Assembly: GCA_963719515.1 (NCBI GenBank)
Contig: CAVRCJ010000003.1
Coordinates: 704,001 to 768,000, forward strand
Length of the DNA stretch: 64,000 bases
Direction of reading: 5' to 3'
Source of the DNA: an uncultured cyanobacterium
GTDB lineage: Bacteria; Cyanobacteriota; Cyanobacteriia; CAKZMO01
Of the stretch, positions 28,769 to 54,843 are shown piece by piece. The position numbers and the translations under genes are program-made. Positions within the stretch are counted from its first letter, which is position 1. The number at the start of each line of letters is the position of its first letter. Under the pieces are notes generated by a model, which was not told where the DNA came from, did no database searches, and saw only the letters and a list, made by a program, of their open reading frames with translations.

Positions 28769-30097
<1,329 letters not shown>

Positions 30098-30218
30098 GTT
30101 TTTGGGGTTCTAATACTCTTCGCTTGACAACCGCGTTTAGATTGGGCCGCTCAATACCTAAGCCCAGCGCGTGAACTAAGGGTATCCTACCGAAGAGCGC
30201 TGCCAAGCCCAACTGCAA

Positions 30219-30610
30219 GTGACATCCTCCCGACGCTGACAGCAAGCTGTACAGCGCGGGCTTCCTCAGTGACTCCCAGCTATTGCCGAGACATATCCTG
30301 AGATAGGTTTATACTCCGCCTGATGCCCCACGGCAGAGTTTTGAATTTTCATCTCCGCGAGGGAGGATACGCACTATGTGTCGCAGATACATTTGCAAAC
30401 TGAGGAACGGGTGACTTGCAGCTTTCGCCTACGGGCCCGTCACACTCTTTGCGGGGTGTATCACCTTGCTATCTCTATCATACCAACTGCTAGCCTCAGC
30501 GCTGAGCGCACTATCCGCTGTGCATCATTTTGCGGGCGCACTTCAGCTAGCGCGACTCTCATCCCGACGCACACCCTAGCGGGTAGAACGCGGGGCTTCT
30601 CGTCTAGTCG
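30219..30610 (-). mobile_element. Non-autonomous IS200/IS605-family element (family A, copy 2)
   Basis: About 286 nt identical to 4889-5174; same TCAC end and TTTAG flank; unrelated outer flanks. Confidence 0.82.
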
Positions 30611-30705
30611 CTAAACGATAGAGAAGCTGTCGCTGGGGTGAAGAGGCGAAAAGTCCGCCAGCCGGCCAACCAGCCAGCCAGCCCGCAAATTAGCAAACAG
30701 GCTTC

Positions 30706-31154
30706 GTGACATACTCCCGACGCTCATCTTTTAGATAGAGCGCGGGCTTCTTGGCTCACGCACCACAATTTAATGGATGCCGCGCAAGAAGGTTTCCTGC
30801 TTCATCTGGTCCTGTCTAGTTACGCAGCAAGCCGTGCAACCCCGATTAGATCCCATCGACAGGCGATTTGTTTAATGCCCAGGCAATGACCAACCCCAGA
30901 CAGTGACGAGTATTCAATTTCCAGCTACGTTTTCTACCGTCTGCACTGTTCACCAGCCAAGGGCTGTACGTTTGTGTCAGGATAGCAGGCCGCCGCCATG
31001 AAATAGTTTGAGCTTGGTTCAATTGTACCCTTTGCTCGCCTCGGCGCTGCCCTTAATTGCCGCCTTCGGCATCCAGTCAAGGGCGCACCTCGACTCGCTC
31101 GCTTACATCCCGACGCTGATGCTGCGCATACAGCGCGGGGCTTTCACGAACTAG
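30706..31154 (-). mobile_element. Non-autonomous IS200/IS605-family element (family B)
   Basis: Same end hairpins and GGGAGTATGTCAC end; different interior containing CGCCTGT...GATGAAGCAGGAA; preceded by TTAG. Confidence 0.72.
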
Positions 31155-32330
31155 CTAACGCATCTGCCAATATTTCCACGCCGCATAGGCCATTGTCACC
31201 ACCCCTGTCGCGATCGCCCTCTCATCCACCTCAAACTTCGGATGATGGAGGGGATAGTTGGGACGATCGCTGAACCCGACCCCGAGGCGAAACATGCTGC
31301 CGGGAACGTGGTCTAGATACAGCGCGAAATCTTCCGCCCCCAGCGATGGCTCTGGCAGCATCAACACGCCGTCATCCCCCCAGGCCTCACGGGCCGAGGC
31401 CTCCGTAATCTGGGTTAGGAAGTAGTCATTTTGGACCGACGGCACCCCTTGGCGGTAGGTCATTTCATACGCCACGCCATAGGTCGCGCATATTCCCGCC
31501 ACAATGCTCTCGATCCACTGGGGGAGAGCGGCGCTGGTTTCAGGATGCAGCGATCGCACCGTTCCGGTCAGGCGCACTTGATCCGCAATCACGTTGGGAG
31601 CGCGACCGCCGTTAATTTGACCAAAGGTTAGGACGATGGGTCGCAGTGGATTCTGGGTGCGGCTAATCGCTTGCTGCAGTGTGGTCACGACCTGAGCCGC
31701 AATCCAAATCGCGTCTTTTGCCTCATGGGGCCGCGCTCCGTGGCCTGACTCTCCCTGAATAATTAGCTCAATATCGTCCGCTGCCGCCGTCAGTGCCCCG
31801 TAGCGAATTCCAATCACGCCAGCGGAAATCGAGGGAAAGGTATGTAGGCCAAGGATAGCGTTGACGTTGTTGAGCACATCGTCTCGAATCATCCAGGATG
31901 CGCCCTGGGCCGTTTCCTCCGCAGGCTGAAAGAGAAACCGCGTGGAGCCGGGAAGATGCTCAGTAATTTGGGAGAGGACCATCGCCACACCTAGACCCAC
32001 CGTGGTGTGTACGTCGTGGCCGCAGGCGTGCATAATGCCGGACTGATGGGAGGTAAAGGCCAGGTCGGTTTTCTCTTGGATGGGCAGGGCATCCATGTCG
32101 GTACGAATGGCCAGCCAGCGCTCGTCGTCTTGGCGGGCAATTTCACCAACGACGCCTGTCTTGCCCACTAGTTCTTGCACCTGCAGCCCGCAGGAAGACA
32201 GCACCCCGGCGACGTAGGCAGCAGTTTTGTATTCCTGGCCGCTCAGCTCAGGATGGCTGTGAAGATGACGACGAATCTCGAGCAAGCGAGGGGTTAGGCC
32301 ACTGGCAATGTCTTTTATTTGGGAGAGCAT
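31155..32330 (-). CDS. M20 family amidohydrolase
   Basis: RRHLHSHPELS, RTDMDALP, MHACGHD, FQPAEE, AEDF. Confidence 0.92.
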   Translation of the reverse strand: MLSQIKDIASGLTPRLLEIRRHLHSHPELSGQEYKTAAYVAGVLSSCGLQVQELVGKTGVVGEIARQDDERWLAIRTDMDALPIQEKTDLAFTSHQSGIMHACGHDVHTTVGLGVAMVLSQITEHLPGSTRFLFQPAEETAQGASWMIRDDVLNNVNAILGLHTFPSISAGVIGIRYGALTAAADDIELIIQGESGHGARPHEAKDAIWIAAQVVTTLQQAISRTQNPLRPIVLTFGQINGGRAPNVIADQVRLTGTVRSLHPETSAALPQWIESIVAGICATYGVAYEMTYRQGVPSVQNDYFLTQITEASAREAWGDDGVLMLPEPSLGAEDFALYLDHVPGSMFRLGVGFSDRPNYPLHHPKFEVDERAIATGVVTMAYAAWKYWQMR

Positions 32331-33101
32331 AGTGTGGAGTGAGACAACAGGGAAAATGTGGCGGCGGAGCCCTCGCGTTTGCGGGCGATCGCACATCATA
32401 CCTCTATGATACGCAGAGCTTTTTGGGGTGCAACGCCGATCGGAAAATTGACTGATCCGCTGGCTTAGAAGTGATCTATAAAGTGAGCGCTGCCCATAAC
32501 GTTGAGGGTCGTTGTCTGTCCCGTATAAAATGACACCTATGAAGATAGTGCAATCACTCTAGAAGCGTGAAGTAAGGATAAATAACTTATGAGGTTTGTA
32601 AAGACTGCTTAGAGTTTAAGACACTGTCCATATACCTAAGAAAAAAAGCGGTTATAACCGCAGTATATTCATGAATTTATTACTGTGCCACGCTGGCACT
32701 TTGCTTGAAAATTGGGTATGCATCGCTGCGAGACGCAGTTTCTGCGGTACAGGTGTCAATTTACAGCTTTTTCATATAAAGAGATGAACTTTATCTATTG
32801 AAAGGTTTAGCCTGTTCAAGAACAGTTCCCTAATCTTTTCTGAGCTCTCTAGTTAAACCAGCCTTTTTCAAAAATCGTATGTCAAGATAAGCATTTAGAC
32901 TGATGTCGATCCGAATTTACCGTTAATTTTCTATTGCTTAGGGTCACTCTTAAAAAGTAGATATGTAAATCAGCCCGCAAAATTGAAAATTTCGAAAAGT
33001 TATTAATTCTCTGAGCGTGCTTTGATCTGGAAACTCGACAATGGTTGAAGTTAGTTGACCCAAGCTGGAGGCAGTTTGGGCTTAGCTATGATTTCTGGAC
33101 T

Positions 33102-33197
33102 ACGGAGTGACTGTCTATCTCTACTCCAGTAGCCAATCTTCCATATCCAACGGAGTGACTGTGCATCTCTGCTCCAGTAGCCAATCTTCCATATCCA
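33102..33197. repeat. 48-bp tandem duplication (2 copies)
   Basis: ACGGAGTGACTGTCTATCTCTACTCCAGTAGCCAATCTTCCATATCCA repeated with 3 differences. Confidence 0.85.
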
Positions 33198-33547
33198 AAA
33201 CACTAGTGCGGCAGCAATTCAGCATGCTCACGCTATTGTTCAAATTGAGCAATAGCTTTTCCGAAGATATCTTTTCAAAGCAGCTTTAATTTATATTTCT
33301 TTATTTACGCCTCTGCGAAGTTGACGTCTTCTACATCTAGCCCGGTGCGTATTGTCCGAAACTAGAACTGTAGAAGCTTCCTCTTAATCAAGCCGCTCTC
33401 TAAAGAGTAAGTGGCCATAAATGAATAACGCTGTGTGGAGGTTGAATCCACCGACGATGACCTCCAGCCGCCTTGTCATAGCTGAAAATTTAGCCGCATA
33501 GAAGAGTCGATTGTCTAGCTTACCTACTGTTTAGAGAGTAAAATCCA

Positions 33548-34489
33548 ATGGAATCTGCCAGAGAGAAAGGGCTGATAACTTCACATATCAAGGCACTTCG
33601 CCCTAAGCAATGGACGAAAAACCTAGTTGTCTATGCAGCACCCCTGTTTGCGTTTCAGCTCAATGTGTCGACCCTAACCAGGGCGACGATTGCATTCGCG
33701 CTATTTTGTAGCCTGTCCAGCTGCTTTTACTTAATTAACGACATTTTAGATGTCGAGTCAGACCGACGGCATCCCACAAAACGCTACCGCCCTATCGCGT
33801 CTGGTGCCGTTACCGTTCCAGTCGCAATAGGTATGGCCGTAGTGCTCTCGGTGGGCAGTCTATCTATAGGAACGTTGCTCTCTCCCTATTTGGGAGTTGT
33901 GCTCGCCTCCTATGCGCTGCTTCAAATTGCCTACAACCTGAAGCTAAAGCACACGGTCATCCTGGACGTCATTGCGATCGCCACCGGGTTTATTTTTCGC
34001 GCCTGTGCCGGAGCCACGGCCTCCGGCGTCGCCCTATCCCCCTGGTTTATCCTGTGCGTTGCAATGCTAGCGCTGTTTTTGGGCATCGAAAAGCGCAAGG
34101 CCGAGCTGCGCATATCGGAGATCAAGGGAAGCACGTCGCGGAAAGTGCTGTACCGGTATTCCCATTCCCTCTTGGGCCGGATGGAGAGCAGCGTGACGAC
34201 CGGCGCTATCATGTCCTACGCTCTGTGGAGTTCCGGACCTGTGGTCCATGGCGCAAGCACGTCGTGGATGCTGCTGAGTCTGCCCTTTGTCCTCTACGGC
34301 ATCTTCCGCTATCAGCTACTCAGCGATCCTGAAGAATCGGCAAGGCGACAGCGCGACACGGGCAGAGGGGGATCCACTGAGCGTCCCGAAGAAGTTTTGT
34401 TGACGGACCGGCCTACGGCGCTAACGGTTTTGGCTTGGAGTCTAACCGTATTTACCGTCTTACTGCTAGAGGCAAAGGGTATTTTTTAA
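33548..34489 (+). CDS. Decaprenyl/undecaprenyl-phosphate 5-phosphoribosyltransferase (UbiA family)
   Basis: LRPKQWTKN, YLINDILDVESDRRHPTKRYRPIASG, LKH..ILD, KRKAE, YGIFRY. Confidence 0.88.
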   Translation: MESAREKGLITSHIKALRPKQWTKNLVVYAAPLFAFQLNVSTLTRATIAFALFCSLSSCFYLINDILDVESDRRHPTKRYRPIASGAVTVPVAIGMAVVLSVGSLSIGTLLSPYLGVVLASYALLQIAYNLKLKHTVILDVIAIATGFIFRACAGATASGVALSPWFILCVAMLALFLGIEKRKAELRISEIKGSTSRKVLYRYSHSLLGRMESSVTTGAIMSYALWSSGPVVHGASTSWMLLSLPFVLYGIFRYQLLSDPEESARRQRDTGRGGSTERPEEVLLTDRPTALTVLAWSLTVFTVLLLEAKGIF

Positions 34490-34545
34490 TATTGCTCAAT
34501 CGCCCGGGCCGTAATTTATCCAGATTGAAACTAACCGAGAACGCA

Positions 34546-35085
34546 ATGAGGATTTCATCAACACCATCATCCAGCCAGACTCACCCTTGCTTTCGGGTCC
34601 GGATGCACCGCGTTGCCGATATCGACATCGCGCGGCTAAAGGCTCAGGGTATTTTGGGTATTATCTTAGACCTGGACAACACCATTGTGTCGGAAGACGA
34701 CCAATACCTGTCTCCCCATGCCGAGGATTGGATAGAGTCGGCTCGTCAAGAAGGCTTCAAGCTTTTTCTACTCTCAAACGGCAAGCGAAAGCATCGCGTT
34801 GACTACTGGTCCCATCGACTCAACATGTCCGCGATTAGCCCAGCTCGGAAACCCCGCCCCGGCAGCTTTCGCCTGGCTCTTCGCAAGATGGGTTTGCGGC
34901 CACACCAGGTGGTGGTGGTGGGGGATAGCTTTCACACCGACGTCTGCGGAGCTCGAATCATCGGGAGCTCCTCTATTCAAATTTGTACGCTTCCTCATCC
35001 ACCGCGATGGTGGGAAAGCATAGCGGGGCGATGGCTACAGCAGCCCGACCCTGATCCTAAAAGTCTGTGGCGCTTCGAGTCCTAG
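34546..35085 (+). CDS. YqeG-family HAD IIIA phosphatase
   Basis: ILDLDNT motif I, LSN, ARKP, VVGDSFHTDV. Confidence 0.85.
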   Translation: MRISSTPSSSQTHPCFRVRMHRVADIDIARLKAQGILGIILDLDNTIVSEDDQYLSPHAEDWIESARQEGFKLFLLSNGKRKHRVDYWSHRLNMSAISPARKPRPGSFRLALRKMGLRPHQVVVVGDSFHTDVCGARIIGSSSIQICTLPHPPRWWESIAGRWLQQPDPDPKSLWRFES

Positions 35086-35162
35086 TTCGGACAGAAGTTT
35101 CCTTAAAGCCTGTGAATCCATAACTATCGATCGCTCAAGTCAACTGCTAGAGGTCTATCTCT

Positions 35163-35498
35163 ATGGCGTCGCAACTTCTATTCGGTGCACTGGTCGCTAC
35201 TACCGTCGGTCTCAATACACTAGCGCAGGTGCTTTTAAAGGCTGGGGCAGAACGCAACCCTTTAAATCCCTATTTGCTCGGAGGGGTGGTTGTCTATGGA
35301 CTCAGTACGCTGATCTACATCAGTGTCCTGAGCAAAGTCAACCTGTCTTTGGCCTATCCCCTGATTATCGGTCTCACCGTAGTCTTCACGACCTTGGCCG
35401 GTAGCCTTCTATTCAAGGAGCGCGTTGACCCCTCTAATTGGGTGGGCATCGGGCTCATGATCAGCGGCATCTGGGCGCTTACTTTAGGCAAAGGGTGA
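35163..35498 (+). CDS. SMR/DMT small 4-TM transporter (ArnE/F-like putative flippase)
   Basis: 111 aa, four hydrophobic helices, AQVLLK, NLSLAYP, LFKE. Confidence 0.75.
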   Translation: MASQLLFGALVATTVGLNTLAQVLLKAGAERNPLNPYLLGGVVVYGLSTLIYISVLSKVNLSLAYPLIIGLTVVFTTLAGSLLFKERVDPSNWVGIGLMISGIWALTLGKG

Positions 35499-35631
35499 GC
35501 CAGCCTCTGTCTTTGGCTCCTCAGCACCTTGGATCTCTCACTCTTTGATTTCTCACATCAGCGGACTCTTGCATCACCAGCACGCTCGCCTTACCTTGCA
35601 CACTCTTATACATCCTTTCAAGGACCGATCT

Positions 35632-36945
35632 ATGGAAAGATCAAGAATCCGCCACGCTGTTATCTCCCCGCAATATCTGTGGGTAGCCGGGATTGCGATC
35701 GCTGTACGAGTTATTTGGGCAATCCTGGTCCCAGTCGTACCGGTGTCCGACAGCGCAGCTTACGACACATTTGCCCAAAACCTTGCGTTTTGTCAAAACT
35801 ATGGCTGGAACTGCACTGACCCTAGCGCTTACTGGCCTGTAGGAACCTCCTTTGCGTACTCGGTCCTATATCGCATTTTCGGGCATACCTACGAACCCGT
35901 GGTTTTTTTCAACATTATTGTTGGCGTCACCATCGTGGTGCTGAGCCAATATCTTGCTGAGCGCTGGTTTGGCGCAAAAGCAGGCATCATTGCGGGGTTA
36001 ATGCTGGCGCTGTGGGCTTGTCAGGTTCAGTTTACGACCACAGTCAACAGCGAGCTGTTATTTACGGCGCTATGGCTGGGGGCGTTAACCCTGTGGTGCC
36101 ATACGACAATCCCCTTTTTGCTGCGGACTGTCGGCACAGGCGTAATCCTTGCAGGAGCTTGCTACGTCAAGCCCGTGGCGCTGCTGATTCCGTTCTTGAT
36201 GATGCTAGTCAACTACGTGAGAGTTCGAGAGGTTTGGAAGAACCTGGCTGCAACCGCAATCATGATGGTGACAATCGGCTTGCTCATTGCCCCCTGGTCA
36301 ATGCGAAATACCCAGGCGTTTGGCCATTTTGTGCTGATCTCGACCAACGGCGGGGCGAATCTTTGGATGGGCAACAACCCCGAGTCTCAGGGAGGCTACA
36401 TGCCCCTGCCGCCCGATATTGAGCAGATGAACGAAGCCCTCCGCGATGACCACTTAAAGTCCCTGGCGATCGCTCACATCAAGGACCGCCCTGTGCTGTT
36501 CGTCAAGCGGTTAGGAAAACGTCTAATCGATACTCACGCCCGAGAAACCATCGGCGTGAGCTGGAACGAAACGCAAATCGTCGAGCGCTATGGGAAAACG
36601 GTCCTGCTGCTGATAAAGCTAACCACCCAGGTTTATTGGCTGGTGATGCTGGGGCTAGGGTTAGTTGGCGCAGTAATGCTCATTCGACAACAGGGTTGGC
36701 TTTTCGCGCTGTTTCATCCCACCATTTTGTTCTGGGGATACTTTGCCGCGATTCACGCGGTGATCGTATCGGGCGATCGCTACCACTTGCCCAGCGTTCC
36801 CATGATTGGAGTGCTCGCGGTGCTGCCGGTGGTGGCGTTATGGGAGCGATTCGAGTCTGAGCCTAACCGGCGTTCGGCTCAAACTTCGGCCCAGACCGTA
36901 AACTCATCTTCAAACGAAAATTCGGAACGAAGACTGCGAATTTAA
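35632..36945 (+). CDS. GT-C fold membrane glycosyltransferase (ArnT/PMT-like)
   Basis: Multi-TM; acidic loop SDSAAY after TM1; AYWPVG, SELLF, PWSMRN...STNGGANLWMGNNP, DRYHLP. Confidence 0.75.
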   Translation: MERSRIRHAVISPQYLWVAGIAIAVRVIWAILVPVVPVSDSAAYDTFAQNLAFCQNYGWNCTDPSAYWPVGTSFAYSVLYRIFGHTYEPVVFFNIIVGVTIVVLSQYLAERWFGAKAGIIAGLMLALWACQVQFTTTVNSELLFTALWLGALTLWCHTTIPFLLRTVGTGVILAGACYVKPVALLIPFLMMLVNYVRVREVWKNLAATAIMMVTIGLLIAPWSMRNTQAFGHFVLISTNGGANLWMGNNPESQGGYMPLPPDIEQMNEALRDDHLKSLAIAHIKDRPVLFVKRLGKRLIDTHARETIGVSWNETQIVERYGKTVLLLIKLTTQVYWLVMLGLGLVGAVMLIRQQGWLFALFHPTILFWGYFAAIHAVIVSGDRYHLPSVPMIGVLAVLPVVALWERFESEPNRRSAQTSAQTVNSSSNENSERRLRI

Positions 36946-37014
36946 GGGCATTCTGCCGCCAGCGCAGGTGTCTCGGGGTGCAGTCAAATATTATATTTCA
37001 CAAGAGGTTTCAGC

Positions 37015-38010
37015 ATGACGGTTTCTACGGCTCCTCGCCTTTCCTCACAAGCTCCGCCCCTCGTTTCAAGCCGGCGGTTTCGTATCTTCTCTGGCTCTGC
37101 GAATATCGATTTGGCCAGCGATGTTGCCCGCTACCTCGGGCTCGACCTCAATTCCATCACCCGCAAGCGATTTGCCGATAACGAGATCTACGTTCAAATC
37201 GAGGAGTCTATACGAGGGTGCGACGTCTATCTGGTGCAGCCGACCTGCGCGCCCGTCAACGACTACCTGATGGAGCTGATGATCATGATCGATGCGTGCC
37301 GCCGCGCATCGGCGCGACAAATTACGGCGGTGATTCCCTACTACGGCTACTCTAGGTCAGACCGCAAAACCGCCAATCGTGAGTCTATCGCCGCGAAGCT
37401 CGCCGCCAACTTGATCACAAAGGCCGGGGCAGACCGCATCTTGGCTATGGACCTGCATTCGACTCAAATTCAGGGCTATTTTGATATTCCGATTGATCAC
37501 GTCCATGGGTCTCCCGTGCTGTTAGAGTACTTGCTCAACAAGCAGATTCCTAACGCCGTAGTGGTTTCCCCCGACATCGGCGGCGTCGCCCGCGCCCGCG
37601 CCTTTGCCAAGAAGCTCAACGACGCGCCGCTGGCCATCATTGACAAGCGGCGGCAGGCCCATAACGTTGCGGAAGCCATGAACGTAATTGGCGATGTCGC
37701 CGGGAAAGTGGCGATTGTGATCGACGACATGATTGACACGGCGGGAACGATTACCGAATGCGCGAAAGCCCTGCGGCGCGAGGGTGCGCTTCAGGTCTAC
37801 GCCTGCGCAACCCACGCAGTGCTCTCCGCCCCCGCAACCGAAAGGCTCTCTAACGGTCCGTTTGAAGAGGTTATTGTCACTAACACTATCCCTGTCTCAG
37901 AGGCCCAAAGGTTTCCGCAGCTGACCATTTTGTCTGTGGCAGACCTCCTTGGGGAAGCGATCTGTCGCGTCCACGAAGAGAATTCCCTGAGCAGCATGCT
38001 GGACGAGTAG
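37015..38010 (+). CDS. prs: Ribose-phosphate pyrophosphokinase
   Basis: FADNEIYV, IPYYGYSRSDRK, MDLH, VVSPDIGG, IDDMIDTAGT. Confidence 0.95.
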   Translation: MTVSTAPRLSSQAPPLVSSRRFRIFSGSANIDLASDVARYLGLDLNSITRKRFADNEIYVQIEESIRGCDVYLVQPTCAPVNDYLMELMIMIDACRRASARQITAVIPYYGYSRSDRKTANRESIAAKLAANLITKAGADRILAMDLHSTQIQGYFDIPIDHVHGSPVLLEYLLNKQIPNAVVVSPDIGGVARARAFAKKLNDAPLAIIDKRRQAHNVAEAMNVIGDVAGKVAIVIDDMIDTAGTITECAKALRREGALQVYACATHAVLSAPATERLSNGPFEEVIVTNTIPVSEAQRFPQLTILSVADLLGEAICRVHEENSLSSMLDE

Positions 38011-38063
38011 CCGAGTTTGCTCCTCAAGCCCAGTACATAATTTCAGCACCGTTACTATCGAAC

Positions 38064-38093
38064 CCAGAGGTCTTACGAGGCCTCTGGTTTTTT
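38064..38093 (+). terminator. Rho-independent terminator closing the ubiA-prs cluster
   Basis: CCAGAGGTCT-TACG-AGGCCTCTGG plus TTTTTT. Confidence 0.8.
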
Positions 38094-38112
38094 AAATAGG
38101 GAGCTTTCGAAG

Positions 38113-38147
38113 AAAAAACGTGCCCCAGCCCTGAAGCGGGAGCACGT
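38113..38147 (-). terminator. Rho-independent terminator of putA
   Basis: Minus strand ACGTGCTCC...GGGGCACGT plus TTTTT. Confidence 0.7.
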
Positions 38148-38273
38148 AAGGTATAGAACCAAGCCTTCTATTGTTAGTACGCTGATCAGATGCGTTTGGA
38201 TCCACCAGTTTGGAAAAAAGAATCTGAACTGCGATCGCTTCCTCGCAGTAGGCCATCTCCCTAGCCTCATGTA

Positions 38274-41200
38274 CTAGTCTACGCCCTCAATCGGCGCAAA
38301 GCCCTGCCGCTGCACGTTCTCCGTCACCATGCGCGGCTCTAAGAACTGCAGCAGGTAGTCCGGCCCCCCCGCCTTAGAGCCCACCCCCGACAGCTTAAAG
38401 CCGCCGAAGGGCTGCCGCGCCACGATCGCCCCCGTGATGGAGCGGTTGATGTAGAGGTTGCCTACCTCGAAGTTTTGCCCGGCTCGCTCAATGTGAGAGG
38501 GGGTGCGGGAGTAGAGTCCGCCCGTGAGGGCGTAGTCGGTGCTGTTGGCAATGGCGATCGCCTCATCGAAGTTTTGGGCGCGAATCACCGAGAGCACCGG
38601 ACCGAAGATTTCTTCCTGGGCCACGACGGCGTCGGCAGCCACATCGGTAAAGATTACCGGACCCACGTAGTACCCTTCTGCCGGCGCGGCGCACTCCAGG
38701 GCTACCGTAGCCTCCTGCTTGCCGGTTTCGATGTATTCTTTGATGCGCTTCTGGGCGGCAGCGTCAATCACGGGTCCAACGGAGGTGCCCGGATCTGTGG
38801 CGTCCCCGACGTTGAGCGATCGCCCTGCCTCCACCAGCCGCTCCACAAAAGTGTCGTAGATGGGATCCAAGACGATGACGCGGGAGCAGGCCGAGCACTT
38901 CTGGCCGCTGTAGCCAAAGGCGGAGTAGACCACGCCCTGCACGGCCTGATCTAGGTCCGCGCTCTCATCCACAATGATGGCGTTCTTGCCCCCCATCTCG
39001 GCTACCACCCGCTTTAGGTGCTTTTGACCGGGCTGCAGCACGGCGGCGCTGGCATAGATCTGGCAGCCCACTTCGCGGGAGCCGGTAAATACAATCATGT
39101 GGACGTCGGGCGAGCTGACCAGATGCGCGCCGACGGTGGAGCCTTTGCCGGGCACATACTGGAACACGCCTGAGGGAATGCCTGCCTCTACCAAAATTTC
39201 CGTCAGCTTAGCGGCAATCACCGTTGTGGTCTCGGCAGGCTTCAGCAAGACGCAGTTGCCCGTCACCAGCGCCGCCACCGTCATGCCGGTGGGAATAGCC
39301 AGCGGGAAGTTCCAGGGGGAGATGACCACCACTAGGCCCCGGGGCTCGTAGCGATAGCGGTCTGTCTCCCCGGCCACGTCGTAGCTATAGCCTGTATCCA
39401 GACGCTCCATCTCGTCGGCGTAGTAGCGGCAAAAGTCGATGGCCTCTGACACCTCGGCGTCCGCCTGATGCAGGGGCTTGCCCCCCTCCACGACCATCCA
39501 GGCCGACAGCTCCGCCCGCCGGGCGTCCAGCCCCTCGCCTGCCTTTCGCAGGATGGCAGCTCGCTCGCTGGCCGGGGTGCGCCGCCAGCCCTCGAAAGCG
39601 GCCTTGGCAGCGGCGATCGCCTGGTCCGCCTGCTCCACGCTGATCAGCCCCACGGTGCCCACCACTTCATCGGGATGGCAGGGGTTGACGGAGTTGACGG
39701 AGCTGACGGTCTCGACGCGATCGCCGCCGACGAGGGGCCTGTAGGTTTGGCCGAGCTGCTGGCGCACGGTGGCCATGGCGCGGGCGGCCTCCTGTCGGAC
39801 AGCCTCTTCCGAGTAGTCGGTGTCGGGGGCGTTCTCAATTAGCGTATAGGGTGCGGAACGCGTTGCGGTATCATCCCCCGACTCATCGCCCGTTACAGGG
39901 GGCGCTAGCAGGTCGTCTACGGGCCGATTCTCCAGGCTCTGCCGCAAAAACGAGCTGTTGGCCGTATTTTCCAGCAGGCGACGAATTAGGTAGGCCATGC
40001 CGGGAATCAGGTCGCCGTAGGGGCAGTAGACCCGCACCCGGCAACCCTGAGCCACCAGCGCTCTGGCCAGCTTGTCCCCCATGCCGTAAAGCACCTGTAG
40101 CTCAAAGGCGCGGCTTGGAATATCCAGGGCGCGGGCGATCGCGATGGCGTGGGCCTGGGAGCGAACGTTGTGGCTGCCGATGGCGGCGTAGAGATGCTCG
40201 TGGTTTTCCAGCAGCCGCTGGGTCATGCGCTCGAAGTTGGCGTCGGTAGAGGACTTGTGGCGGTAGACGGGCTGGGGCCAGTGGTTCTGCCGGGCAGTGA
40301 TAGTCTCTTGGTCCCAGTAGGCTCCCTTCACCAGCCGCACGGTGATCGGATTCCCCCGCCCCTTGGCCCACTCAATCAGCTCCTGCAGATCTTCATCGCT
40401 GTCCCGTAGGTAGGCCTGCAGCGTCACCCCCACGTCGGTGCGATCGCGAAACTCCTCTTCCATCAGCAGGTCTTTGAGAATCGCCAGGGTGATGGCTTTG
40501 TACTCATACTGCTCCATGTCGAAATGCACCGCCGCCCCCAGTTCTTTGGCGCGGCGCAGCAGGGTGCGGGCGCGATCGCGCACCACGGCTTCGCTGCCCT
40601 TGGCGTCTAGCGGGTCGAACTGGGAGTAAAAGGCGGTGAGCTTTACCGACACCTGCACCTTGGGCAGCGCCCCACCCGCCTGGTCGATTTGCGGCACGGT
40701 TCCCCAGCGGCGGGAGGCCTCCACCAGCTGCTCCATCAGCTCTAGGTAGCGGTTGAGGTAGGACTGAGCTTCGGTTTCGGTAATCACCGCCTCACCAAGC
40801 AGGTCCACGGTGAAGGCCATCTTTTGCTTGCGCAGCTGCTCGATGGATTTGAGGGCCTGCTTCAGGGTCTCGCCGGAAATGTATTTGCGGGCTAGGGTTT
40901 CTACGGCAGTAGACACGGTGGTCGCCGCCACCTGCCCCGGCATAGAGTCGGGGCTGGCAAAATTGAGCAGGCCTTTGAGGGCGCTGGGCAGCTCCACAGC
41001 GGGGTCGCCCAAATACTCCTGCATGTGGCGGGCCACTTCTGCTTTACTCTTGAGGGCGGGTAAGCAGTCGATGAAGCGAAACATCTGCACCCGCAGCCCC
41101 GGATTGCCCATGGTCCAGTCCAGAAGCTTGTCGTCCCAGCGCATTTGGTCGCGCACCTGGCTGAGCAGCGATCGCTTTTCCTGAGTCGCCGATAGCAGTT

Positions 41201-48898: not shown

Positions 48899-51800
48899 CT
48901 ACGCATCAGGCCGCGTCTCCGGCATCATGCACTTGTCCGAATCACATCCGGCAGGCCCTGCCTCCAGCCGCTCACCCAAGTCGTAGCGGACCAGCGCTTT
49001 GTAGAAGTCGTCCACCGACCGCCGCTCACACACCTTGCCCATCAGCTGCTCGTACTGAGCTTTGTCGATGGGCTCAAAGGGTAGGCGGGGGAAGGTCTGA
49101 TGGTCATCGAAGCGGGACAGCAGCGCCGCCGACATGTAGCCTGCATCGGTTTCAATAGCCTGGTGAATTGCCTCCGCCAGCGGCTCTACTTCCGGCTCCC
49201 GCAGCTCGATGGTAGCGCTGGTGTTGTGGGTAGTGTAGTGCTGCTGCACCTGCATATAGAAGTCAAACTGAGCTAGGGCGGAGAATTGGCTAATATCGAT
49301 TTGATCTGCGCCCGGTAGGTTGGCCCAGCTCACCTCTGTGGGAATTTCCACCAGCCACTCGGTGCAGCGCGGGTCAAAGGGGTCATCTAGCAGCCGCCCC
49401 TGCTCGTCTTTGTCGGACTGGGCGGGCACGACGCTGTAACCGTAGTCGATGCAGGCTAAAGCTACCGGGTCGCTCTTTCCAAAGGTGATGCGGCGAATGA
49501 ACCGCTGGGCTTTGGGGGGGTGCCAGCCGGAGGAGGCCCCGGTGAGCAGGCTCTTGGTGCCCGCAGGCTGAACGGTGGTGCAGCGGTTGGGCCGCTTGAT
49601 GCCGTGGCGATCGCAGTAGTCCCATACGGTGGCGTGGACGATGTCGCGCCAGCGGTTGAGATACGCCTTCTCCTGCTGCTTGAACTCCAGCCCGCGCATG
49701 GTGTTGGGGCGACCTGCTTCCCACCACTGCAGCCATTCGACGCCAAACGCATGGACGAAGAAGTCAAACAGGCCGGTGAAGGAGACGCCGACGATGGGGT
49801 CCATCTCCCGCGATCGCCGGTAGCGCGGCTCTTGGAAGCGATGGTTGAGCAGGGCGGCGACGGAGAGGGCACCGGCTTTGAAGGCGGCTTCCTGCTCGTC
49901 GGGGTTGTCGGGGTTGAGCTGGTTGAGGTGGACTTCGGCCAAGTTGCAGTGGAAGTCTACGCCGATTATTTCGCCGCAGTTGTGGGCAACGAAGCCGTTG
50001 GCGTCAAAGCGAGCCGGGCCAGGGACGGTGCAGTCGTAAACCGGCTCGATACCGTCTGGTTCGACGCTGCTGACGCGCACTGCAAACTGACCGTGCTGAA
50101 GTCCGTAACGATAGCCTTGCATCAAAGACTCTAACTGCTGCTCCTTTTCGACTTCCGTAAAATGAATCAGCTTATCGAAGATGTAGACACTGTCATTGCT
50201 AATAACTAATTCGTATTGAACTTTATCTGCTTGAGATTGGGATCCGCGTAGAGAGCTTTGAAGCGAACGCTTATCTGTCAGAGGAAGGGTTTGGCAGATA
50301 GTAGATGCCATACCTAGACGTAGCAGCATACGCTGGACGGCTTTAAGAAATTCCAGATCGCTTTCAATAAGGCGAATACTAATGTCTTTGTGCTGCCGCT
50401 CTTGTACAAAGCCATCAACGTTAAACAACTCCTCTAAAAAGCCAAGATAGAAATCGTAGCTCGCTGACTCTATGGCGGGAGTAATAGTTTTTTGTCCGGA
50501 GTTGTTAATGCTGTAGCTCTTGGCCAATTCTTGGACGTTAATGGGAGGAGTTTGCGTGTATCCGTCCAGCTCATACCGTATGACGCTTTGGTACCCAGCG
50601 AGACTAAGCTTTTTCCTCATAAAGCTGCTTAGTAGCTTGCCTTCCTCTTTTGTACCTGATCCTTTCCAACCGCGAAAAGGGTCATGCTCGTGGATAAAGA
50701 CACGATTACCTGGGCGTAGCTCTCCGGCCTCGATCCACTCCTCATCCTCTTCTGTCCGAGTCCAGGATGTTGCCTTAAGAAGCTTATGATTCTCAGTGAG
50801 ACGAAGCTCGTAGCCCTCATTCGTTACTACCTTGACCACAGGCTTTTCGCCAGTGCAAAAGAAACCCTCTTCCGTAGTGCTGTGTAATTTGCCATCTACA
50901 TACACGTTTATAGAGCGTTGCTCATTTTTTAACTCACTCACCTGGCGAGCACCGTGCTCGGTATGGACCCAGGTATCCGCAGTAACGCAGGGATTGAGGC
51001 CATAGCGCTCCGTACGGTGCTTCAGCTCCTCAGCAGCTAAAGGCTCTACACCAGAGTTAGACGCCAGCTCCTGTAGGTAGGATTGAGCTGCTTCCGGAGA
51101 GCTGGTGTAGCGCTTCAGAAACTCAGCCTTCTCCTCAGGCGATCGCACCAAATCCACATTCGCCCGCGCGATCGCCTCTCCTGCCCATTGGATAGCGCCT
51201 TCCCCAGAGTAATACTGCTTGCGCACCGCCGCTTGGCATTCTTCTAGCGAGGGCTTGTGGTGAAACACGCGGGTATGGTTGGCCATGCGCAGCACGTCTC
51301 GCTCGGGGTCAATGCGCCAGCTCCCGTCTGCATCCTGTCCCCATAAATTATCCTTAGCTTGAGCCGCCTGATCGTCGTCGCTGCCAAACTGACGAATTCC
51401 CGCGCTGCGCCGAATATTCCCGGCAACAACACAAGCTGCCGCCTCATCAATCAACAGGCAGCATTCCACCGACGTCAGTTTCCGGCCCTGCGCCTTATTG
51501 AGAATATTGGCGCAGCGCTGGTAAAGCCTAGGCAGGCGCACAGGATTGGCCACGCCGCCGAATCCCTTTAGCTTCTCTCCCGCTGGCCGCACGTGGCTCA
51601 GGTCCACCGTGACGCTTATCTCGCCAGTAAACCGCTCATCGGTCGATAGCTCCAGCAGCGCTTGATACGACGACACCCAACCCTGACGGCTATCGCCCAC
51701 CCGAATGTGGACCTCGTGGTCATCGATTGAGACTTCGGTTTTCTCCTGGCGCTGCTCTGCCGGAACGGTGCCGATGTCGCTCTGCGTCACCACCTGCAGC

Positions 51801-52234
51801 AGATTGCGAGGACAGGGAATCAGGTTAATGTACTTGTGCTCTAGCACCGCTCCCGTGCCGCAGCCCATCATGGCTAGGTCCATCATTAGGCCAAAGGCCT
51901 GCCAGTCGATGACGTTGGTGCTGGTGCAGTTATAGGCCCCAGAAAAGTTCTCCGGCTTCTCTAGCCAAGCCGTGCCGCCCACCCACAGCCAGCGCCCCGA
52001 GGGCATCGCCTTAAGCTGCTGCTGCATCTGGCCCACTAGCTCGGCCTCGCGCTCCGAAAGCTGACCTAGCTTCACCAACCCAGTGAGAGTGCGATCGCAC
52101 ATTTGCCCCCAGGTTTCGCGGGTGGCGTCGGGGTCGCTGCCGCGGCGGCTGTAGGTCCTGTAGAAGACGGCGGGGGCTGCGGGAGCTGAAGCGGGAAAGC
52201 TTGCTTGACGGGACCGTTCGATGTTTTGAACCAC
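48899..52234 (-). CDS. nrdJ: Adenosylcobalamin-dependent ribonucleoside-triphosphate reductase (class II) with intein
   Basis: PSGRWLWVGG, YNC, GNIRRSA, NP[intein]CGEI, CNLAE, TTVQPAGT, C-terminal GCDSDKC. Confidence 0.93.
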   Translation of the reverse strand: MVQNIERSRQASFPASAPAAPAVFYRTYSRRGSDPDATRETWGQMCDRTLTGLVKLGQLSEREAELVGQMQQQLKAMPSGRWLWVGGTAWLEKPENFSGAYNCTSTNVIDWQAFGLMMDLAMMGCGTGAVLEHKYINLIPCPRNLLQVVTQSDIGTVPAEQRQEKTEVSIDDHEVHIRVGDSRQGWVSSYQALLELSTDERFTGEISVTVDLSHVRPAGEKLKGFGGVANPVRLPRLYQRCANILNKAQGRKLTSVECCLLIDEAAACVVAGNIRRSAGIRQFGSDDDQAAQAKDNLWGQDADGSWRIDPERDVLRMANHTRVFHHKPSLEECQAAVRKQYYSGEGAIQWAGEAIARANVDLVRSPEEKAEFLKRYTSSPEAAQSYLQELASNSGVEPLAAEELKHRTERYGLNPCVTADTWVHTEHGARQVSELKNEQRSINVYVDGKLHSTTEEGFFCTGEKPVVKVVTNEGYELRLTENHKLLKATSWTRTEEDEEWIEAGELRPGNRVFIHEHDPFRGWKGSGTKEEGKLLSSFMRKKLSLAGYQSVIRYELDGYTQTPPINVQELAKSYSINNSGQKTITPAIESASYDFYLGFLEELFNVDGFVQERQHKDISIRLIESDLEFLKAVQRMLLRLGMASTICQTLPLTDKRSLQSSLRGSQSQADKVQYELVISNDSVYIFDKLIHFTEVEKEQQLESLMQGYRYGLQHGQFAVRVSSVEPDGIEPVYDCTVPGPARFDANGFVAHNCGEIIGVDFHCNLAEVHLNQLNPDNPDEQEAAFKAGALSVAALLNHRFQEPRYRRSREMDPIVGVSFTGLFDFFVHAFGVEWLQWWEAGRPNTMRGLEFKQQEKAYLNRWRDIVHATVWDYCDRHGIKRPNRCTTVQPAGTKSLLTGASSGWHPPKAQRFIRRITFGKSDPVALACIDYGYSVVPAQSDKDEQGRLLDDPFDPRCTEWLVEIPTEVSWANLPGADQIDISQFSALAQFDFYMQVQQHYTTHNTSATIELREPEVEPLAEAIHQAIETDAGYMSAALLSRFDDHQTFPRLPFEPIDKAQYEQLMGKVCERRSVDDFYKALVRYDLGERLEAGPAGCDSDKCMMPETRPDA
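49979..50989 (-). mobile_element. Intein (337 aa) with degenerate LAGLIDADG endonuclease
   Basis: Starts CVTADT, block B LTENH, ends VYDCTV...NGFVAHN before Cys+1; visibly more AT-rich than the exteins. Confidence 0.93.
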
Positions 52235-52746: not shown

Positions 52747-54843
52747 CTACGACAATAGAATGTCCTCACTCGAAACGCCGTACAGCTGACAGACTAGCTT
52801 ATCAATTTCGAAGTCTATTCTCTGCTGCGAGTCGCCCTGCGCGATGTGACCCCCCGTAGGGCGACTCAATAGCTGTCGCTGGCAGACCAGCTCGCGCAAG
52901 CGCTCAACTTCTGAAGGCGATTGGACCCAGACGTACTCTGGCGGCAGCGGCAGCGATCGCACCTGGGGTGGCCCTACCCGCAAGTAGCCCCCCTGAAGGG
53001 CATTGCCGCCAAATACCGCCTGAAAGTAGGCGGTCATCAGGGCGCTATTGAGCAATCCGAGCAAAACCGGGCCGATGACTGGAGCCTGGTCTGCATCGAG
53101 CAGGATGATCGTCGTAGACTTCCCCGCCATCAGCATGCCTGACTTATCCCAGACGCACTCTAGCTGCTGAGTAAGGCCGGCAACAATCAGCTTGGATGAG
53201 GCGGACTGTTGGTAGCGCTTGGGAAAGGCGCTCAACAGCTCAGCTTTTGCAATCACGGGTCGCCGGTAGCGATCGCCCAAGTAGCGTAAGGGTTTGGTGC
53301 CCCAGCCGTGGGTATAGCGATCGATGGTGCCGCTATTCACCACCTGAAACTCAGTAGGCTGGGACAGTTTGTGAATGAGATCGTAAATGAGGGGCTGCAG
53401 TCGGTAGGCTTCGGATACTGACGCAGCCCCCACCACCGTCGCGGCGCTGCTCAAGGTTGGATAAGTCTGGAGTTGGGAGAGCCAAGAGCGCTGACTCGGC
53501 GGGGAGAGACACCAGGGTTGGGAAGTGCGGAAGCGCTGGGGGCAGAGTCTATGGGCTTTGGCAGGCTTCGCTGGGGGAGCCATCACCTCATAGAGGACCG
53601 TATCGGTCTGGGAGGGGGCACGCTTTTGAAGCGTATAGACAAAGGGGTAGACCGCCGCCTGAAAACTCCCCACTCGGCTGTAGTCCCGCAGGTGGTATAG
53701 CCCGTACTGGCCCAGCAGCGATCGCGCTTCTGCCGCGTAATCCGCGCAAATAAGCTTATTGGGCACCACAAAGCTATGCCAGCCTCCCTCACCGCACAGC
53801 TCCAGCGCCCGCTCAATGAAAACGCAAAACAGATCCCAGTTGCCCTGCGCCGTCAGGTATCGTCGGCCCCGGGCCGATCTGCCGCGGCAGTAGGCGCGCC
53901 AGTGAGGAAGCTGAGCCACCATCGCCTCTGAGTCGAGGTAGGGGGGGTTGCCGAGCACAACGTCAAACTGAGTTTGCTGGAGGGGATAAGGGGCGAGGTC
54001 TAGGGCGATCGCCTCGAGAGGCCCCGAAGTATGTATAAGGGCATTGCCGCAGCGGATGGTTTGGCTGAGGCTGGTCAGACCATAGATGCGATCGCCGGTA
54101 TCATTCACATCCCAGAGCGATTTTGAGGGTTCACCGTTCGCAGCGGCCCCCCGGCCCCCAATGCTGGGGGAGCAGGATTCGAGGTTAGAAGTACTTGCCT
54201 CTGATGACAGCGAGCAGTCTGAGTTTGCCTGGGTTCCCTCAAATGTCGGGGCTGAGGGGTCCACGAGAGACCAAATACTACTCCGACATGTTCTACCAGC
54301 GGCGTTAACAGCATAGCCACGTTCTAGAACTGCCTTCGCCACCGCCAAACCCAGAGCCAATCGCGTCACCGCCACCGCATTGGGGTCAATATCGACGCCG
54401 GATAGCGCACCCAGCAGCCGTGCGTAGTCCTGTGGGAGCGAGGGTTGACAGCGCTGAACCAAATACCGGTAGGCTAAAACGAGAAAAATTCCGCCGCCGC
54501 AGGCCGGGTCGAGAACGGTGGGCGCGGTTGAGCCGCGGCAGGCTGGCGCTAGGGTGGCCTCCACCATGAACTGGGCGATCGCTTCTGGGGTGTAGTAGCT
54601 GCCCTGGCGCTTGCGGGTGGGGGTTGCTGTGGTGGAAGACGCCAGCTCGGCCTCGTAGGTTTGACCCAGCACGATGGGCAGCTGATGCAAGCCCGGCGAC
54701 AGAGACCAAGAGCGCTGCAGTATTGCCCAGAGGTCGATCGATACGTCGAGTTCAGCGGTGCATGCTGGGGCGATCGCGCTCCACCAGTGGCGCAGGTGCT
54801 CTAGGGTGAACGCTGCAGCAGGATCTACCATCAACGGAGCCAC
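52747..54843 (-). CDS. Gamma-class N6-adenine DNA methyltransferase (Eco57I/TaqI-like)
   Basis: GSYYTP, LDPACGGGIF, FDVVLGNPPY, TaqI-C-like tail. Confidence 0.8.
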   Translation of the reverse strand: MAPLMVDPAAAFTLEHLRHWWSAIAPACTAELDVSIDLWAILQRSWSLSPGLHQLPIVLGQTYEAELASSTTATPTRKRQGSYYTPEAIAQFMVEATLAPACRGSTAPTVLDPACGGGIFLVLAYRYLVQRCQPSLPQDYARLLGALSGVDIDPNAVAVTRLALGLAVAKAVLERGYAVNAAGRTCRSSIWSLVDPSAPTFEGTQANSDCSLSSEASTSNLESCSPSIGGRGAAANGEPSKSLWDVNDTGDRIYGLTSLSQTIRCGNALIHTSGPLEAIALDLAPYPLQQTQFDVVLGNPPYLDSEAMVAQLPHWRAYCRGRSARGRRYLTAQGNWDLFCVFIERALELCGEGGWHSFVVPNKLICADYAAEARSLLGQYGLYHLRDYSRVGSFQAAVYPFVYTLQKRAPSQTDTVLYEVMAPPAKPAKAHRLCPQRFRTSQPWCLSPPSQRSWLSQLQTYPTLSSAATVVGAASVSEAYRLQPLIYDLIHKLSQPTEFQVVNSGTIDRYTHGWGTKPLRYLGDRYRRPVIAKAELLSAFPKRYQQSASSKLIVAGLTQQLECVWDKSGMLMAGKSTTIILLDADQAPVIGPVLLGLLNSALMTAYFQAVFGGNALQGGYLRVGPPQVRSLPLPPEYVWVQSPSEVERLRELVCQRQLLSRPTGGHIAQGDSQQRIDFEIDKLVCQLYGVSSEDILLS
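54145..54262. repeat. Palindromic repeat doublet inside the methyltransferase ORF
   Basis: Outer arms GGCCCCCCGGCCCC / GGGGCTGAGGGGTCC, inner CCCCCA-ATGC-TGGGGG. Confidence 0.65.

Follow-up and report, generated by a model that had tools for sequence, protein, structure and literature searches.

The closest described counterpart of the locus analyzed here is the three-component system by which Citrobacter youngae O1 adds alpha-ribofuranose (alpha-Ribf) to its O-antigen (Kelly et al. 2024, PMC11127046). Its parts are a haloacid dehalogenase (HAD) domain fused to a polyprenyl-phosphate 5-phosphoribosyltransferase (PPPRS; ORF15), a predicted EmrE/ArnE-like four-helix flippase (ORF14) and a GT-C glycosyltransferase of family GT136 (ORF12), and in C. 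youngae O2 the optional short-chain dehydrogenase/reductase (SDR) ORF13 alone switches the sugar to xylofuranose (Xylf). The same authors call the strategy widespread and mention a phage in which the PRP is separate; flipping by the small multidrug resistance (SMR) type protein is not directly demonstrated even in this prototype. The mycobacterial decaprenyl-phosphoryl-arabinose (DPA) pathway comprises PrsA, the decaprenyl-phosphate phosphoribosyltransferase (DPPRS) Rv3806c, Rv3807c, DprE1/DprE2, Rv3789 and the Emb/Aft GT-C enzymes, and the aminoarabinose donor of the Arn system (ArnE/ArnF with ArnT) is made via the ArnA-D UDP-sugar route. Here we examine a five-gene cassette in a 64,000-nt stretch of DNA (the window; positions 704,001 to 768,000 of contig CAVRCJ010000003.1, assembly GCA_963719515.1) from an uncultured cyanobacterium whose genome of 5.28 Mb is rated 100% complete. 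An earlier reading of the letters alone, hereafter the original prediction, had seen in it a self-contained path from phosphoribosyl pyrophosphate (PRPP) through polyprenyl-P-ribose and a flippase to a GT-C enzyme. Our analysis points to extracytoplasmic ribofuranosylation of the three-component type, in which the phosphatase is split off and a PRPP synthetase is added as an accessory, and we give this reading a probability of roughly 0.65.

In the proposed scheme Prs would make the PRPP used by a UbiA-family synthase. A PgpP/YqeG paralogue would strip the 5'-phosphate on the cytoplasmic face, as suggested by its position and its interchange with other phosphatases, and an SMR dimer may flip the resulting polyprenyl-P-beta-D-Ribf. 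The GT-C enzyme, whose fold is apparent from its structure model, would then attach Ribf to a surface polysaccharide that is already polymerised, as a side chain most likely alpha-linked through an inverting transfer. This sequence of steps, as originally predicted, draws on the same component set as the published Citrobacter account (PMC11127046), and a lipid-linked pentose pathway of some kind is very probable.

Both systems have a UbiA-type synthase that uses PRPP and whose catalytic residues agree, homologous four-helix flippases, a GT-C enzyme and no DprE1/E2, and in both the phosphatase step would fall to a HAD-superfamily protein. They differ in that the putative cyanobacterial phosphatase for this step is a separate PgpP/YqeG paralogue instead of a fused PRP domain, that the 437-aa GT-C protein lacks a carbohydrate-binding module and any sequence likeness to the GT136 orthologue tested, and that a duplicate prs stands in the operon, outside any O-antigen locus. 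The Escherichia coli O99 locus (record CP082773, taken from the ORF12 alignment of Kelly et al.) served as stand-in for C. youngae, its ORF13, ORF14 and ORF15 orthologues being assigned by position and annotation. With the DPA pathway the cassette shares an orthologous DPPRS and the logic of PRPP entry, dephosphorylation, flipping and GT-C transfer; it differs in having no DprE1/E2, an ArnE-like flippase and one GT-C, so that a side chain is expected rather than an arabinan. The phosphatases differ as well, Rv3807c being unrelated to HAD PRPs according to the same source (PMC11127046) whereas the cassette enzyme is a HAD protein. ArnE/ArnF and ArnT resemble the cassette in the lipid-flippase type of the SMR proteins and in the fold of the GT-C enzyme, but here the donor would come from PRPP instead of a UDP-sugar, there is a single SMR gene and the GT-C is 15% identical to ArnT. 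Three of four sequence-testable features would place the system among the three-component pentofuranose systems, and by the same kind of evidence it is neither GT136-based nor a DPA pathway.

The novelty implied by the original prediction is not supported, the PRPP-to-Ribf route being already characterized in C. youngae O1 (PMC11127046). The main new elements are an apparently repurposed phospholipid phosphatase and a transferase of another kind, the ribose-loading strategy itself having been proven in 2024 in gut bacteria; the chemistry would not surprise a glycobiologist aware of that work, which the cassette would extend to cyanobacteria. A literature search mostly outside subscription papers returned no description of this cassette in cyanobacteria, and the supplement text of Kelly et al. 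2024 (PMC11127046) contains neither 'cyano' nor 'Nostoc' nor 'YqeG'. The legend of its Fig. S11 does list nosturonic acid, and a Nostoc glycan is probably drawn there.

Synthase, phosphatase and flippase

Four of the five proteins exceed curated family cut-offs for the roles originally predicted for them, and the SMR protein lies above its Pfam cut-off and below those of ArnE and ArnF. The UbiA-family protein scores 271.8 bits against the DPPRS model NF008978 (cut-off 207) and, once the fused PRK08238 and all three models for DPPRS are set aside, at most 57 bits on any other model. This difference rules out a quinone, chlorophyll or haem prenyltransferase; clustering with either of the first two is what the original prediction had named as fatal to itself. 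The protein matches the solved Rv3806c structure (PDB 8j8j) with an E value of 4e-51. Nine of the ten substrate-binding residues of Rv3806c named in the consulted part of PMC10994848 are identical: R18, K24, Y61, K78, R81, Y129, K134, K182 and K199 correspond to R22, K28, Y70, K87, R90, Y138, K143, K191 and K208, and the tenth, Y157, is replaced by F148, a Phe also in the E. coli ORF15 orthologue. Aligned via that orthologue, N64/D65/D68/D72 and R183/E186 equal N247/D248/D251/D255 and R366/E369 of ORF15, so both the N-D-x-x-D-x-x-x-D loop and the R-x-x-E motif are present. Replacing any of the four loop residues abolished ORF15 activity in vitro (PMC11127046).

YqeG is PgpP, the phosphatidylglycerophosphate (PGP) phosphatase of Bacillus, and is described as occurring in most cyanobacteria (PMC11804483). 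The cassette protein shares with it the HAD-IIIA family (TIGR01668, 157.2 bits, cut-off 89.1), the hhhDxDx motif (here IILDLDN) and, on the predicted role, action at the membrane on a lipid whose head group is phosphorylated. It has a capless HAD fold with intact catalytic motifs (D42/D44, S77/N78, K102, G126/D127/D132), and its nearest named homologues, 77-78% identical, are labelled Elainellaceae. Unlike PgpP proper, it is a second copy adjoining a DPPRS gene, the housekeeping copy being kept elsewhere between mltG and proB (G000:C15). An unrooted tree separates 22 cassette copies from 31 housekeeping copies (that of this genome and the top 30 by score in the phylum survey) by a 100/100 branch, which argues against orthology to the single-copy PGP phosphatase, and the cassette clade has invariant motifs of its own (DLDNT, SEDD, SNGKR, GDSxHTD, HPPRWWE). 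YqeG was present in all 121 phylum genomes sampled; two matches occurred in five, four of them cassette carriers and one with a partial match.

In a set of 80 loci anchored on UbiA and spread over many phyla, the phosphatase slot is taken by a PF12710 HAD protein in 20, DUF212 in 17 and YqeG in 8; none was found in 35, and two types never stand together (0/80). What is most original in our finding is that this slot has been filled by the duplicate of a lipid head-group phosphatase. A polyprenyl-P-ribose 5'-phosphatase, the function suggested by sequence and gene context, would be a candidate new activity in the PgpP family. As separate observations made on L022, L023, L029, L035 and other loci, DUF212 ('divergent PAP2') fills the phosphatase slot and, in Paenibacillus-type loci, DUF6080 occupies the GT-C slot; these positions give candidate functions for both families.

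The SMR protein scores 37.6 bits against PF00893 (cut-off 23.7), and its best NCBIfam match is ArnE (46.3, cut-off 92) with ArnF at 33.2 (cut-off 99). These sub-threshold scores and its being the single, unpaired SMR match in the genome speak against ArnE/ArnF membership. A search with the ORF14 orthologue from E. coli O99 also finds it as the sole match in the genome (32% identity, E 5e-8). The protein shows four hydrophobic peaks and no Glu in helix 1, and N18, which the ORF14 orthologue also has, is kept in 90% or more of 19 cassette SMRs; lipid-type SMRs frequently have Asn replacing the central Glu (PMC9574504).

The sugar delivered

As the original prediction supposed, neither DprE1 nor DprE2 was found in the genome, here by five routes. 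The genome has no ALO domain (DprE1), and its four FAD_binding_4 genes score as GlcD, GlcE-like, MurB and GlcD-like. The best genome scores are 46.9 on the DprE1 model NF053785 (cut-off 500), 43.5 bits on a DprE1 profile (vs 632-789) and 101.7 on a DprE2 profile (vs 317-417). When a cyanobacterial DprE1 was used as query, 13 of 32 genomes matched, this one not among them. Of the 12 genomes that have this type of module, 11 gave no match and the other has a DprE locus apart from the module; all 28 additional DPPRS carriers, from two genera, were likewise without a match.

The original prediction had overlooked the ORF13-type route to xylofuranose. No ORF13-type epimerase was found in the genome, whose best SDR score was 101 bits vs 517-600 for orthologues. 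The best genome SDRs are 24-28% identical to cassette SDRs, compared with 46-48% between true orthologues, and among the five highest-scoring ones two are assigned to GalE and RmlB with scores above cut-off. Neither the glucose-methanol-choline (GMC) oxidoreductase type nor the L111-type methyltransferase discussed below has a match in the genome, and modifying genes lie inside the cassette in every case seen. Since DprE1/E2 and an ORF13-type epimerase are both missing from the genome, ribose is the likely sugar, and a lipid-linked pentose pathway here would probably deliver it unmodified.

Relatives show how the sugar may vary. In the genus of L011, a record titled Nostoc sp., the synthase occurs in 38 of 127 genomes, and 17 of 20 loci consist of a divergent prs followed by DPPRS, YqeG, SMR and GT-C genes. 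Three of these 17 add a methyltransferase. Four add an SDR that shares 46-48% identity with the ORF13 orthologue (99/99 in the tree) and lies within the cassette right after the SMR gene (4/20 loci), likewise the position after the flippase seen in the C. youngae O2 account; the epimerase switch between Citrobacter O1 and O2 thus recurs in cyanobacteria. Such genes could serve as markers to predict surface ribose, xylose or arabinose furanoses in cyanobacteria.

Several further loci deserve mention in their own right. In L291, L292, L298 and L308 the ORF13-like SDR follows a longer SMR (126 aa), a predicted xylofuranose variant in the Nostoc genus. DPPRS loci L011, L114, L115, L278, L279, L293 and L305 carry a GMC oxidoreductase, two SDRs, a large membrane protein and a small gene (methyltransferase-like in L293) and no DprE1, possibly another route of pentose modification. 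Arabinose-type cyanobacterial loci with DprE1/E2 have a HAD domain fused to LPG_synthase_TM (L098, L099, L102, L103). An S-adenosylmethionine (SAM) methyltransferase in or beside the cassette (L111, L112, L299, L302, L309; also L009, L133, L161, L165) hints at O-methylated ribose. A 316-aa SDR near the cassettes of one genus was considered as an epimerase and set aside: its presence in all four UbiA-less genomes of that genus tested marks it as a flanking gene.

The GT-C enzyme, its acceptor and competing explanations

The GT-C protein scores 30.6 bits against PF13231 PMT_2 (cut-off 26.1). Its structure model (pLDDT 94.7) is all-helical, without a carbohydrate-binding module or a soluble C-terminal domain of the oligosaccharyltransferase kind, and superposes on AglB (Z 24.9, rmsd 3.6, 297 aligned) and ArnT (Z 24.8, rmsd 4.0, 317 aligned). 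D40, after helix 1, and E141 are invariant among 117 homologues. It thus combines linkage, the GT-C fold and an acidic residue near helix 1, as do the systems of Kelly et al. Membership of GT136 was rejected by sequence on one ORF12 orthologue, that of E. coli O99, on which a profile of the 117 homologues scores -0.3 bits (BLASTP E 2.2); PDB sequence searches with the protein and the profile gave chance matches only. Another cyanobacterial cassette, L108, does carry a GT136-like protein (E 8e-52), and the GT-C slot in cyanobacteria varies among unrelated or distant subfamilies. The protein represents a candidate ribofuranosyltransferase family outside GT136. Nine further PMT_2-type loci exist in the genome, two of them related to GT-Cs beside other cassettes; these two could share the lipid donor.

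A metagenome search anchored on the GT-C protein found DPPRS/PPPRS in 45 of 80 loci, in 29 of the 36 loci of at least 8 kb and in 27 of 34 clusters (90% identity, each including a long locus). Among the 45, a fused ORF15-type HAD occurs in 38, an SMR in 27 and DprE1 in none. Glycan genes (GT2/GT4/GT61, Wzx, Wzy_C, WecG or exosortase) adjoin GT-C relatives in 15 of 27 loci, based on 91 of 133 selected neighbouring open reading frames (ORFs) scanned, and these neighbours favour a Wzy-type exopolysaccharide (EPS) or capsule as acceptor. Of the acceptors originally predicted, EPS gains by these neighbours. Lipid A loses: cyanobacterial lipid A structures reviewed in the accessible part of PMC4515613 are mostly without phosphate, which makes lipid A unlikely for ArnT-type chemistry. 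We consider a polysaccharide the likely acceptor, most likely EPS or sheath and otherwise O-antigen.

According to a secondary source, N. commune and other Nostoc heteroglycans (released polysaccharide) carry D-ribofuranose pendant groups (PMC5635763). The UbiA-YqeG-SMR-GT-C module may be the genetic origin of these branches, an attribution that we hold tentatively and at a little under even odds; it would supply candidate genes for how the EPS of desiccation-tolerant Nostoc acquires its ribose branches. Helm and colleagues reportedly assigned, in 2000, the alpha configuration to Nostoc ribose.

Several observations weigh against ribofuranosylation of a polysaccharide by this cassette. No polysaccharide genes flank it within the window. 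Homology between YqeG and the PRP domain of ORF15 does not extend past the HAD motif (DxD). The GT-C family need not be ribose-specific, since it lacks sequence likeness to the GT136 orthologue and one relative (L136) stands beside DprE1/E2 with no visible DPPRS; ORF12 itself is reported to accept both Ribf and Xylf (PMC11127046). In one genus, seven loci that are nearly identical (L012, L013, L270-L273, L275) show no recognisable GT-C gene directly following that for the SMR protein. The genome holds 12 generic extended-SDR matches (36-101 bits), and the tree splitting them from nine cassette SDRs is weakly supported (78/54), which leaves room for an unlinked SDR epimerase. As for Prs, the gene is absent from all 80 GT-C-anchored loci, and second prs copies also occur in two genomes (G001, G002) where the UbiA protein was not found.

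These points feed into four competing explanations. The same pathway might deliver Xylf, arabinofuranose (Araf) or O-methyl ribose if an unlinked enzyme epimerised or methylated the donor. The Citrobacter precedent of a single switching SDR and a promiscuous ORF12 (PMC11127046), the related cyanobacterial cassettes with an ORF13-like SDR (7/40), a GMC/SDR set or a SAM methyltransferase, and the dozen extended SDRs of this genome all lend it some weight; set against the low identity of those SDRs, two of which are GalE and RmlB, the DprE1 scores far below true members, the missing GMC-type and methyltransferase matches and the habit of modifying genes to sit in the cassette, we regard it as unlikely. 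We think similarly of transfer to a protein (pilin, S-layer, PEP-CTERM) or glycolipid instead of a polysaccharide. The GT-C fold resembles those of AglB and Pmt (Z 21) no less than that of ArnT, a related donor route is proposed for Pseudomonas pilin arabinosylation (PMC11127046), two GT-C relatives lie near exosortase EpsH and no glycan locus flanks the cassette; yet the model has no oligosaccharyltransferase-like soluble C-terminal domain, the relatives sit mostly in Wzx/Wzy/WecG/GT clusters, and the phosphates that ArnT modifies are mostly missing from cyanobacterial lipid A in the review cited above. Its boldest form, in which the GT-C founds a new ribofuranosyltransferase family acting on a surface protein, served by the repurposed PgpP paralogue and a private Prs, is improbable, and we rank it below the tamer and likelier origin of Nostoc EPS branches; if true, it would mean lipid-donor ribosylation of a pilin, S-layer or PEP-CTERM protein.

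The phosphatase could also be a redundant PGP phosphatase or nucleotidase riding along, ribose-5-P being transferred as such or dephosphorylated elsewhere. That the family function is PGP phosphatase (PMC11804483) and that the cassette and housekeeping copies score equally on the family model (157.6 vs 160 bits) would fit, but its separate clade with invariant motifs, its exchange for unrelated phosphatases in the slot and its absence where PPPRS carries a fused HAD make this quite improbable. Least credible of all is that acquired genes without joint function lie together by chance or are decaying: the distribution is patchy (4/17 family and 54/401 phylum genomes) and third-position GC content (GC3) is slightly low in four genes, but frames are intact, purifying selection is evident and gene order is kept across cyanobacterial families, with equivalent modules in other phyla. 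Ribofuranosylation of a surface polysaccharide remains our preferred reading.

Accessory Prs, distribution and genomic setting

The cassette Prs belongs to the family by its score against NF002758 (584.5 bits, cut-off 518), and a dedicated role in PRPP supply would fit its position. The search for a second, housekeeping prs that accompanied the original prediction succeeded: it lies at G000:C10, and the cassette copy is 73.6% identical to it. A prs also follows the GT-C gene in a genome of the same genus, G010, and these two cassette copies form a long-branch pair apart from the cassette copy of G163, which is sister to that genome's own housekeeping gene (97/89). By this sister pairing, prs was duplicated into the cassette at least twice. 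In the head-to-head layout the divergent prs is the genome's only copy in all seven genomes tested, and seven other cassette carriers have a single, unlinked prs. Absence from many cassettes and repeated duplication rule out prs as an essential, ancestral part, and on this comparative evidence the link is recurrent yet optional. 'Self-contained' accordingly describes the five genes here, prs included; elsewhere prs is missing or is the sole, head-to-head copy. The cassette Prs has substitutions at conserved sites, on which we base no claim of feedback insensitivity.

NF008978 matches 54 of 401 sampled genomes of the phylum, and the UbiA protein was found in 4 of 17 genomes of the family. Our set of 60 cyanobacterial DPPRS loci (four duplicates dropped) draws about half its members from two related genera, so that kin are oversampled. 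The cassette YqeG type occurs in 40 of them, accompanied by SMR in 39, prs in 19, an ORF13-like SDR in 7 and DprE1 in none; the ten loci with DprE1 have neither YqeG nor SMR. With 39 of 40, clustering exceeds chance, and UbiA-YqeG-SMR is a recurring cyanobacterial module whose conserved order answers the synteny check originally proposed. Against G010, the five proteins are 71-86% identical with saturated synonymous sites (pS 0.75-0.82, pN 0.08-0.18, purifying selection in all), and DNA identity is 69-75% vs 75-88% for flanking stretches. GC3 of four cassette genes is 0.61-0.64 vs a genome median of 0.68. This history fits a patchy, maintained accessory module. Two UbiA-YqeG pairs in G010 (L096, L097) are either paralogues or signs of mixed strains. 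UbiA genes 60-62% identical to that of the cassette occur in L006, labelled Actinomycetota and holding a full cyanobacterial-type module, and in L014 (Methylomonas), through transfer or misbinning.

The five co-oriented ORFs at 33548..38010, their families and the closing hairpin are all borne out (Table 1). Intergenic gaps of 56-133 nt suggest co-transcription, and an alternative upstream TTG start at 35545 is possible for the GT-C gene. The hairpin has 10 bp (38064-38087) followed by a T run, with a fold z of -2.54 and 4 of 200 shuffles folding equally well. Terminator-like sites were about as frequent in the scan as expected (8 vs 7.7), which makes the pattern weak evidence by itself; what supports the call is the location directly after prs and before the convergent putA.

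Table 1. Features of the cassette and its borders (window coordinates)
Feature	Coordinates	Strand	Size or remark
UbiA-superfamily polyprenyl-phosphate 5-phosphoribosyltransferase (PPPRS/DPPRS)	33548..34489	+	313 aa
Stand-alone HAD-IIIA phosphatase, PgpP/YqeG paralogue	34546..35085	+	179 aa
SMR-family four-helix protein, lipid-flippase type (ArnE/F- and ORF14-like)	35163..35498	+	111 aa
GT-C fold glycosyltransferase	35632..36945	+	437 aa
Second ribose-phosphate pyrophosphokinase copy (Prs)	37015..38010	+	331 aa
Intrinsic-terminator-like hairpin and T run	38064..38093	+	between prs and convergent putA
AT-rich intergenic region, presumed promoter region	32400..33547	.	1.15 kb, 41% GC

Promoter consensus sites upstream of the cassette are at chance level, and no Rfam match was found across 30000-39000. 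The upstream region contains a 48-nt tandem duplication (33102-33197; two copies 94% alike, fold unremarkable) with no further copy elsewhere in the genome. Farther along the window, an adenosylcobalamin-dependent ribonucleotide reductase (48902-52234, minus strand, 1111 aa) matches intein-bearing models at residues ~415-524 and probably contains an intein, and an adenine DNA methyltransferase-like gene (52750-54843, minus strand) has weak BREX PglX matches. Just upstream of the window (G000:C3; L123:12592-13890), a TnpB-family RNA-guided endonuclease gene, scoring above its cut-off, adjoins genes for an HpnA-like SDR and a GT-C protein.

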